Below, one piece after another: positions 17,948 to 18,904 of a DNA stretch of 64,000 nt (positions are counted from its first letter, which is position 1; each line of letters opens with the position of its first letter). A model generated the notes under the pieces. It had not been told where the DNA came from and made no database searches. It saw only the letters and a program-made list of their open reading frames with translations. The DNA is taken from NCBI RefSeq assembly GCF_057098645.1, contig NZ_CM169472.1; one strand, 5' to 3'. Position numbers and translations under genes: made by a program.

Positions 17948-18050
17948 ATCCTGCAAAAATGTGGCCGATATGCTGTCGGCCACACTCCTGAATCGGACTG
18001 TCTTTCACTCCCTCTCTCCACTACATTCCCTTGCTCATTTAGCATCTGAT

Positions 18051-18773
18051 ATGGAGTCATCAGTGAACAAGGCCCCCTCTTTAATTGCCGCTATCGTCCT
18101 CGGACTGGGGATTAGCGCCTGTGGTTATTTTGTTGGCGATGGTGTTAAACATTTAAAAACCAACAACCGTTATGTCAATGTGCGCGGGCTTTCTGAAAAA
18201 GAAGTTCGCGCAGATACGGCGGAATTAACAATTGCGATTAACTTTAAGGGTAATGTTCCCGGCGAACTGTTCCCGAAACTGGAAGAAGCGCAGAAAAAAA
18301 TTGTTGCCGAACTCAATGCTCAGGGGATTAACGAGAAAGAGATAATTCTGGGCCAATGGACAAGCAAGCGAACAGATTCCTTTTATCTGAAAGATGATCC
18401 CACAATGCCACGCTATAACGCAGACGGGTCAGTGACGATAAAAACCCATAATGTTGCTGCTGTCGAAAAAGTCGTCGCGAAATTAAACGAACTGCAAGTC
18501 GCTACGGATGGCGCTATCGCTGAGAGCAAAGTCGCCTATCGCTTTAATGGTATTGGCGCACTGCGCGCTGAGATGATTGCTGCCGCCACCAAAGATGCAC
18601 GCAACGCCGCACTACAATTTGCAACGGACTCAGGTAGCCAGGTGGGGTCAATTAGCGATGCCTCACAAGGCGTATTCCAGATCTTTGCCAGTGGCAGTGA
18701 TGAAGATGATCCTACGGCGATTAATAAAACGGTACGCGTAGTCACGACCGTAACCTATGCGTTGCAGGATTAA
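18051..18773 (+). CDS. SIMPL/DUF541-like protein with N-terminal membrane anchor or signal peptide; extra gene between sppA and ansA
   Basis: ORF 17961-18773; likely start ATG 18051 (or GTG 18066 after GGAG); hydrophobic N-terminus APSLIAAIVLGLGISACGYFVG; C-terminal KTVRVVTTVTYALQD resembles SIMPL (YggE/BP26-like) proteins; the sppA–ansA gap is ~958 bp here against ~170 bp recalled for K-12. Confidence 0.6.
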   Translation: MESSVNKAPSLIAAIVLGLGISACGYFVGDGVKHLKTNNRYVNVRGLSEKEVRADTAELTIAINFKGNVPGELFPKLEEAQKKIVAELNAQGINEKEIILGQWTSKRTDSFYLKDDPTMPRYNADGSVTIKTHNVAAVEKVVAKLNELQVATDGAIAESKVAYRFNGIGALRAEMIAAATKDARNAALQFATDSGSQVGSISDASQGVFQIFASGSDEDDPTAINKTVRVVTTVTYALQD

Positions 18774-18904
18774 CCACTTTTCTCCGGCGGGACACTAATC
18801 CCTCCGTCCTGCCGGACTTTTCTCATATCCACAGAGTATCCAGGTGCGCTCGCTGCCCCTCACGTATATACTTTTGCTCTTTCGATATCATTCATATCAA
18901 TATC

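Follow-up and report, generated by a model that had tools for sequence, protein, structure and literature searches.

Strains of Escherichia coli differ in how much DNA lies between sppA and ansA, and the locus raises the question of whether the longer form gained a gene or the shorter form lost one. We addressed this question in a stretch of 64,000 nucleotides (contig NZ_CM169472.1 of RefSeq assembly GCF_057098645.1; hereafter the window), which is E. coli O157:H7 DNA. In the window, the end of sppA (17947) and the start of ansA (18905) enclose a spacer of 957 bp, whereas the two genes are 166 bp apart in K-12, so that 791 bp are extra here. A first-pass annotation, made from the letters alone, had put the two spacers at ~958 and ~170 bp and the extra DNA at ~0.8 kb, barely more than the size of its open reading frame; the measured values bear this out, and one open reading frame occupies the spacer. 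In a megablast search of complete E. coli genomes, the 957-bp spacer was 100% identical to those of strains PV15-279 and RV06, and the gene that it carries is 100% identical in O157:H7 Sakai. The gene is already known, being annotated in RefSeq as a "SIMPL domain-containing protein" (ECs_2473), and ECs2473 is listed as absent from MG1655 in a transcriptome study of O157 (PMC4940412). Our analysis indicates that the extra DNA is probably an ordinary chromosomal gene, old in Escherichia and later lost in the predominant allele, and that its product would be an envelope protein.

Results

Coding sequence, start codon and boundaries

The coding sequence (18063..18773, + strand) specifies a SIMPL domain-containing protein of 236 aa (ECs_2473; WP_001030441.1), and both PGAP and the Sakai annotation begin it at the GTG at 18063. 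The sequence GGAG lies 6 nt 5' of this codon, and the GTG and its Shine-Dalgarno sequence (GGAG/AAGGAG) are kept in E. albertii and in L006, a genome whose protein is labelled E. fergusonii by NCBI. The ATG at 18051, which overlaps the Shine-Dalgarno sequence, is conserved in neither genome. Conservation thus favours the GTG over the ATG, and the gene most likely starts at 18063 and encodes 236 residues; the single frame called earlier (18051-18773, 240 aa) is thus genuine, but its start is not. The region 5' of the gene (17985..18062, + strand) includes the Shine-Dalgarno GGAG (18054-18057), and a consensus scan found no sigma-70-like promoter for the gene. The GC content of the gene is 48% (GC3 46%), compared with 51-53% (GC3 53-56%) in the neighbouring genes.

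The gene is flanked by two hairpins on the + strand. The first, just 3' of the sppA stop codon (17960..17984), has an 11-bp stem and a 3-nt loop (dG -17.8 kcal/mol, z=-5.7), and K-12, E. albertii and L006 each have a homologue of it. In K-12, where the sequence continues as TTATTTTTT, and in L006, but not in the O157 window or E. albertii, the hairpin is followed by a T-run. The second is a terminator-like stem-loop with the T-rich tail CTTTTCTC (18783..18824), in which the hairpin itself, at 18783-18816, has an 11-bp stem and a 12-nt loop (dG -21.2 kcal/mol, z=-4.8); our terminator scan missed it because the loop exceeds 8 nt. No shuffled sequence folded as well as either hairpin. At the matching position, E. 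albertii has a different hairpin. Both of the hairpins proposed in the first-pass annotation (17958-17985 and ~18794-18825) are therefore real, although the second lies ~10 bp leftward of where it had been placed.

The stretch in which the two alleles differ spans 17985..18825 (no strand assigned) and comprises 841 bp here against 52 unalignable bp in K-12, CFT073 and UTI89. In genomes without the gene, megablast homology restarts at query positions 872-879, which correspond to 18819-18826 of the window. The ansA upstream region (18826..18904, + strand) is common to both alleles and contains ACGTATATACT, whose core is the only part that recurs in outgroup spacers (as TATACT).

Family, fold and closest relatives of the protein

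A profile search matched the protein to the Pfam SIMPL family (PF04402) over the full model (positions 1-205 of 205; i-Evalue 4.1e-18, 66.8 bits), which confirms the SIMPL/DUF541 likeness suspected at first sight and for which an HMMER search against this family had been proposed. The domain covers residues 38-232 of 236 (18174..18758, + strand; residues 42-236 of the 240-aa translation). An AF2 model built on 38 homologues had a mean pLDDT of 86.5, with values of 85-95 over the SIMPL domain, and placed a helix at residues 4-30 ahead of a two-lobed alpha/beta domain like that of solved SIMPL structures. With this model, Foldseek returned 7C50 as the top match (E=1.3e-16, target-normalised TM 0.79), followed by BP26 (4HVZ, E=4.1e-11). 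In phmmer searches, the best structures were PDB 10am (E=1.6e-27) and 7C50/7C51 (E=6.4e-26), with query residues 9-236 aligned to residues 8-231 of 10am at ~31% identity, and a profile search separated the Cj0034c-type 10am (E=6.3e-59) widely from BP26 (E=6.9e-6).

PDB 10am is a Campylobacter "Periplasmic protein" solved as nine chains, with the N-terminal segment included, and 7C50/7C51 is a C. jejuni "SIMPL-like protein". The Campylobacter protein is Cj0034c, as its genome context shows: the gene comes after typA, genes for a cytochrome c and a DUF2130 protein, and the MFS gene Cj0035c. Cj0034c lies at 51967-52668 and has 233 aa (PMC4032127). Judged by sequence, the closest studied relative of the E. 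coli protein is C. jejuni Cj0034c. The similarity runs from end to end, hydrophobic N-terminus included, and a single glycine-bearing hydrophobic helix precedes the domain, which places the protein in a Cj0034c-like subfamily. The two proteins are of similar length (233 and 236 aa), share a layout in which an N-terminal hydrophobic segment is followed by the SIMPL domain, have matching folds, and hold the motifs EMIAxAT..ARNAA.QFA.DS, ASQG.F and KT.RVV.T in common. They differ in that Cj0034c has no lipobox cysteine. The gene settings differ as well: in C. jejuni, Cj0034c and the MFS efflux gene Cj0035c just upstream share 4 bp, whereas the E. coli gene is on its own in the sppA-ansA spacer, without an MFS operon link.

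The comparison with YggE and BP26 made at first sight was correct as to the SIMPL family but loose beyond it, Cj0034c being closer. Brucella BP26/Omp28 (4HVZ), the best-known bacterial SIMPL protein, is soluble and periplasmic, has a cleaved signal peptide and is a reported 16-mer. It shares the Pfam family, the two-lobed fold and the envelope location with the E. coli protein but is distant from it (16% identity, TM about 0.5). E. coli YggE, the "oxidative stress defense protein" present in every E. coli genome, is likewise a distant SIMPL paralogue; its signal peptide is cleavable, and it has no anchor that is retained. The YggE equivalog model NF008299 scored only 18.9 bits against a cut-off of 249, and orthology with YggE was ruled out on that score.

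The N-terminal anchor

Residues 1-24 (MNKAPSLIAAIVLGLGISACGYFV; 18063..18134, + strand) form a hydrophobic anchor that contains a lipobox-like ISA/C, with the codon of Cys20 at 18120-18122. Residues 6-25 are the only strongly hydrophobic stretch of the protein (Kyte-Doolittle 19-residue mean up to 2.1, the sole peak above 1.6); together with the AF2 helix at residues 4-30, this supports the N-terminal anchor or signal sequence proposed in the first-pass annotation. Among 38 family sequences, G16, G21, G25 and G27 are conserved in at least 90% (G..G...G.G). Because the hydrophobic segment is conserved, unlike a signal peptide that is discarded, the anchor would be ancestrally an uncleaved helix with a conserved glycine pattern throughout the family. 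On this model, the protein would be exported and tethered to the membrane, with the SIMPL domain in the periplasm.

In E. coli and E. albertii, the cysteine creates a lipobox, and the protein may be lipid-anchored there instead. The PROSITE PS51257-type rule asks for a Cys at 15-35, a Lys or Arg within the first 7 residues and an uncharged h-region; the segment AIVLGLGISAC, which ends at Cys20 and has K3 in the n-region, conforms to it. Signal peptidase II would then cleave before Cys20, between MNKAPSLIAAIVLGLGISA and the cysteine, and the Lol pathway would sort the lipoprotein to the outer membrane (Gly at +2). This arrangement is quite possible, although we lean slightly against it. The "putative lipoprotein" label of ECs_2473 in the Sakai annotation agrees with the rule in its favour. 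However, the lipobox occurs in only 4 of the 38 family members, the Cys column being mostly Gly, Ala, Met or Leu, and the L006 homologue carries Val at -1. The conserved glycines also extend beyond the cysteine (GYFVGDG), a pattern more typical of a helix that is retained than of a signal peptide that is removed, and the Campylobacter homologue in PDB 10am contains its N-terminal segment.

Neighbourhood of the gene and search for mobile elements

Family neighbourhoods in other taxa were compared by a family-alignment profile search, which gave 67 loci among the matches listed (31-46% identity, mostly Bacteroidales and Alphaproteobacteria metagenome-assembled genomes). No neighbour family recurred in more than 6 of the 67 loci listed, and the six loci that share the most recurrent one belong to closely related Bacteroidales genomes. 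An anti-phage defence system was dropped as a reading (PADLOC, 0 families), and neither a phage gene (PHROGs) nor an RNA family (Rfam) was matched. These results agree with the earlier description of a single-gene unit that belongs to no larger system.

We found no integrase or transposase ORF and no tRNA target at the locus, and the flanking repeats are short and at chance level. E. albertii does not share the 10-nt inverted pair seen here at 17947-17956 and 18762-18771. The insertion of a mobile element or island was rejected as a candidate: hallmarks of one are missing, and E. albertii, L006 and L088 all have the gene at this site, which is empty only in more distant genera. Elsewhere in the window, an IS21-family element lies at 33.3-35.7 kb, which makes it doubtful that the sppA-ansA gene is the most plausible accessory element of the window, as had been suggested.

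Distribution and age of the gene

Carriers were counted at the nucleotide level, as genomes in which 80% or more of a 723-bp query spanning the gene matches at 97.5% identity or more. Of 5426 complete E. coli genomes, 943 are carriers, each with a single copy on the chromosome. Copies that are at least 99% identical occur in 347 genomes (O157:H7, O145), and copies of ~97.5-98.9% identity occur in 596 (ST131 and others). At least four E. coli backgrounds carry the gene (O157/O145, ST131, LP5-1 and N96). K-12 lacks it, and 4,483 of the 5,426 genomes (~83%) do too, so the expected absence from K-12, a claim that would have failed had most E. coli carried the gene, holds.

The same sppA-ansA slot is occupied in other lineages. 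E. albertii holds the gene there with 86.5% amino acid identity, and L006 does so with 70.5%; the flanking genes of L006 are only 78-80% identical to those of E. coli at the nucleotide level, which calls for caution over its E. fergusonii label. L088, a fourth enterobacterial lineage, also carries the gene in this slot, next to an sppA of 80% nucleotide identity. In three more distant enterobacterial genomes, one labelled Salmonella and one matching a Citrobacter sp. protein, sppA lies directly beside ansA without the gene, and the terminators there are unrelated and GC-rich. Among the homologues of the SIMPL protein, there was no named Salmonella, Klebsiella, Citrobacter or Enterobacter protein, and the nearest relatives outside Escherichia come from uncultured taxa at 50-59% identity. 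The proposal of an insertion relative to K-12 is contradicted by the occupied slot in E. albertii, L006 and L088, and K-12 instead appears to represent the derived, gene-less state. At a deeper level, the proposal survives, in that three distant enterobacteria lack the gene, but the recent strain-level polarity does not.

The dN/dS ratio was 0.10, 0.06 and 0.12 in three comparisons, which indicates purifying selection. Between O157 and ST131, dS is 0.075 for the gene and 0.067-0.14 for sppA, ansA and pncA. Between O157 and E. albertii, it is 1.25 for the gene and about 0.67 for the flanks, and the amino acid identity of 86.5% compares with 97-99% for SppA and AnsA. Because dN/dS is low and the O157-ST131 dS resembles that of the flanks, we consider the gene functional and to have diverged along with its surroundings.

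The gene-less allele

The gene-less spacer of 166 bp was found in K-12 (phylogroup A), CFT073 (B2, ST73) and UTI89 (B2, ST95). K-12 and CFT073 are identical at 161 of 166 positions, and the UTI89 spacer has the same length. ST131 (B2) carries the gene, and B2 therefore holds both alleles; these phylogroups were taken from a handful of named strains, with D, F and G outside the comparison. ST131 and CFT073 differ at 6 of 1857 positions in sppA and 7 of 1017 in ansA, so the flanking genes track phylogroup. In contrast, the 79 bp beside the indel track the allele, with 0/79 differences between O157 and ST131, 1/78 between K-12 and CFT073, and 7/78 between alleles. Strain N96 combines the SIMPL protein of ST131 with the AnsA protein of K-12/O157. 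Because the flanks follow phylogroup while the adjacent 79 bp follow the allele, and given the N96 combination, short recombination tracts appear to have carried the alleles from one background to another.

The gene-less allele retains the Escherichia-specific hairpin GTGGCCGA...TCGGCCAC, absent from the outgroups, and because this Escherichia-type hairpin was kept, the allele appears to descend from a gene-bearing ancestor. Its central 52 bp align to nothing in gene-bearing alleles, local scores being no better than those of shuffled sequences; their placement in the alignment of the K-12 spacer with the gene-bearing spacer is unstable, and the outgroup spacers are too diverged to polarise them. 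On the left, counted on aligned sequences, the 37 bp of the gene-less allele differ from O157 at ~12 of 40 positions, compared with ~6 of 40 between E. albertii and O157. The unalignable 52 bp, the diverged left side and the L006-like T-run argue that the gene-less allele is not a simple recent deletion; it could be old, imported, or an untidy product of deletion. A deletion at CCAC microhomology (17981-17984 and 18776-18779), which would join the hairpin to the T-rich run, was considered as a candidate and dropped.

Discussion

Overall, after weighing these comparisons, we propose a putative history for the sppA-ansA locus. The gene would have entered the slot early, in an ancestor shared by the Escherichia-type lineages, and would then have been inherited under purifying selection. 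A single gene-less allele would have arisen when 841 bp were replaced by 52 bp, leaving the sppA hairpin and the ansA upstream region intact, and it would be this allele that K-12 and, in all, about 83% of complete E. coli genomes now have. Both alleles would have been shuffled among phylogroups by short-tract recombination.

The opposite polarity, in which a single gene was recently inserted horizontally into the O157 lineage and K-12 keeps the original empty site, seems to us very improbable. It would suit the direct contact of sppA with ansA in more distant enterobacteria, the GC (48%) and GC3 (46%) slightly below those of the neighbours, the uncultured nature and modest identity (50-59%) of the nearest relatives outside Escherichia, and the central 52 bp of the K-12 spacer, which have no counterpart in the gene-bearing allele. 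Nevertheless, gene order in other Escherichia species already contradicts this reading: E. albertii, L006 and L088, with flanks that are 12-22% diverged, have the same gene in the same slot. A recent arrival also sits poorly with the presence of the gene in at least four E. coli backgrounds, with an O157-ST131 divergence equal to that of the flanks, and with the lack of an integrase, target-site duplication, tRNA or conserved terminal repeat at the site, while the K-12 allele bears the Escherichia-type hairpin rather than the outgroup-type terminator. We give hardly any credence to the idea that the ORF is a decaying, functionless relic, which would explain its absence from most E. coli. Indeed, 83% of complete genomes do without the gene, its sequence changes faster than those of the neighbouring genes (86.5% versus 97-99% amino acid identity to E. 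albertii), and some truncated forms exist in the databases (P0004, P0005 and P0012). However, a relic would be hard to reconcile with dN/dS values of 0.06-0.12 in three comparisons, with 943 carriers in which 80% or more of the 723-bp query matches at 97.5% identity or more (at the nucleotide level), or with a conserved start codon and Shine-Dalgarno sequence. Transcript levels are also regulated in Sakai, in which ECs2473 rose 11.65-fold with lettuce cell-wall polysaccharide (PMC4940412).

Loss of an old gene, as we prefer, leaves room for different origins of the gene-less allele. It is unlikely, though it deserves some weight, that this allele is an ancient haplotype that predates the E. 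coli phylogroups or was introgressed from an unsampled relative, so that the two forms make up a long-lived and possibly selected polymorphism. Within each class, the alleles are nearly identical across phylogroups, whereas between classes they differ at 7/78 positions on the right and ~12/40 on the left, against 1-3% in the flanking genes; the T-run of the gene-less allele is common to L006; B2 has both alleles, with the gene in ST131 and without it in CFT073 and UTI89; and the homologous C. jejuni locus is a recombination hot region (PMC4032127). On the other hand, the signal is confined to about 120 bp of flank, the phylogroups were inferred from few named strains, and the same picture would result from error-prone deletion or repair, with neutral drift and ordinary recombination afterwards. 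A stronger form, in which the haplotypes are a very old polymorphism that arose before the phylogroups and possibly before the split from E. albertii, with a protein that is good in some niches and costly in others, is decidedly less probable. Deep allele-linked divergence within about 120 bp of the indel is what such a polymorphism predicts; the benefit might lie, for example, in adhesion to gut or plant surfaces, and the cost in offering a target to phage or host immunity.

We know of no biochemical activity for any SIMPL family member. By analogy with Cj0034c, BP26 and YggE, relatives that are at most 31% identical, we tentatively suggest that the protein probably acts in the envelope without being an enzyme and influences surface properties such as adhesion or tolerance of envelope stress. 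Inactivation of Cj0034c, which lies in a recombination hot region of C. jejuni (PMC4032127), sharply reduced adherence to intestinal epithelial cells, according to the part of that report which cites Nielsen et al. 2011. BP26 binds collagen, vitronectin and fibronectin in vitro (PMC7697752).

Read at its plainest, the locus would be an ordinary difference in gene content between O157 and K-12, already in the literature (PMC4940412) and of little import beyond bookkeeping. In the history that we favour, the K-12 state would be a loss and not the baseline from which other strains depart. The protein would belong to the anchored, Cj0034c-like branch of the family and not with YggE, which would direct experiments to adhesion and envelope phenotypes. 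ST131 and O157, which carry the gene, and ST73 and ST95, which do not, may then offer natural, isogenic-like contrasts for testing what the SIMPL family does.

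Repeats and matches of the sppA-ansA spacer

The extra DNA between sppA and ansA is enclosed, nearly exactly, by a perfect 10-nt inverted repeat (AATCCTGCAA / TTGCAGGATT), the arms of which lie at 17947-17956, overlapping the sppA stop codon, and at 18762-18771, adjoining the stop codon of the SIMPL gene. By our own estimate, perfect inverted pairs of 10 nt are expected by chance at about 0.5 per 1 kb, and comparison of the spacers showed that this repeat is not kept in E. albertii. We also found a perfect 9-bp direct repeat, ACTTTTCTC, at 18776-18784 and 18816-18824, that is, on both sides of the terminator-like hairpin 3′ of the SIMPL gene. 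These direct copies may have arisen by chance, or they may be the remnant of a small palindromic insertion. When the spacer was compared with 5426 complete E. coli genomes, nine had no match to it whatever, and its ansA-proximal 86-bp segment was found on two records typed as plasmids.

Other variable DNA in the window

An IS21-family element occupies 33266-35684, between yeaD and mipA, and encodes an istA-like transposase (NF033546, E=1e-84) together with a helper ATPase, IstB (NF038214, E=2e-76). This element is a further accessory element within the window, and therefore the SIMPL gene is not the sole one there. Adjoining it on the minus strand (35681-36331) is an aldo-keto reductase ORF of 215 aa, which looks like a shortened yeaE.

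The ydjE-ydjL sugar-utilisation cluster (20666-29378), located beside pncA, itself varies by presence and absence between genomes. In the E. coli strains LP5-1 and N96, in the locus labelled E. fergusonii (L006) and in three outgroup genomes (L101-L103), pncA is followed directly by yeaC, msrB and gapA. Between gdhA and topB, CFT073 carries three extra genes (7614-12124 of its locus, L093), whose products are a J-domain protein, a member of the Hsp70 family and a hypothetical protein; UTI89 (L096) is without them. The same interval of the window holds a partial ORF on the minus strand (11087-11674), which we take to be ynjI from the K-12 gene order. Its match to NF008480 (E=5e-110) covers only positions 159-350 of the 353 in the model and scores 368.1 bits, under the curated cut-off of 386; the N-terminal half is absent or in a different frame.

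The Campylobacter homologue

The SIMPL homologue of C. jejuni, Cj0034c, shares 4 bp with Cj0035c, the MFS efflux gene immediately upstream of it (3802-5702 of locus L097). One metagenome gene call (P0123) even has SIMPL and MFS domains in a single fused product. No such link to an MFS gene was seen in Escherichia. A structure of the full-length Campylobacter homologue, including its N-terminal hydrophobic segment, contains nine chains (PDB 10am), which hints that the protein forms an oligomer or a larger assembly.
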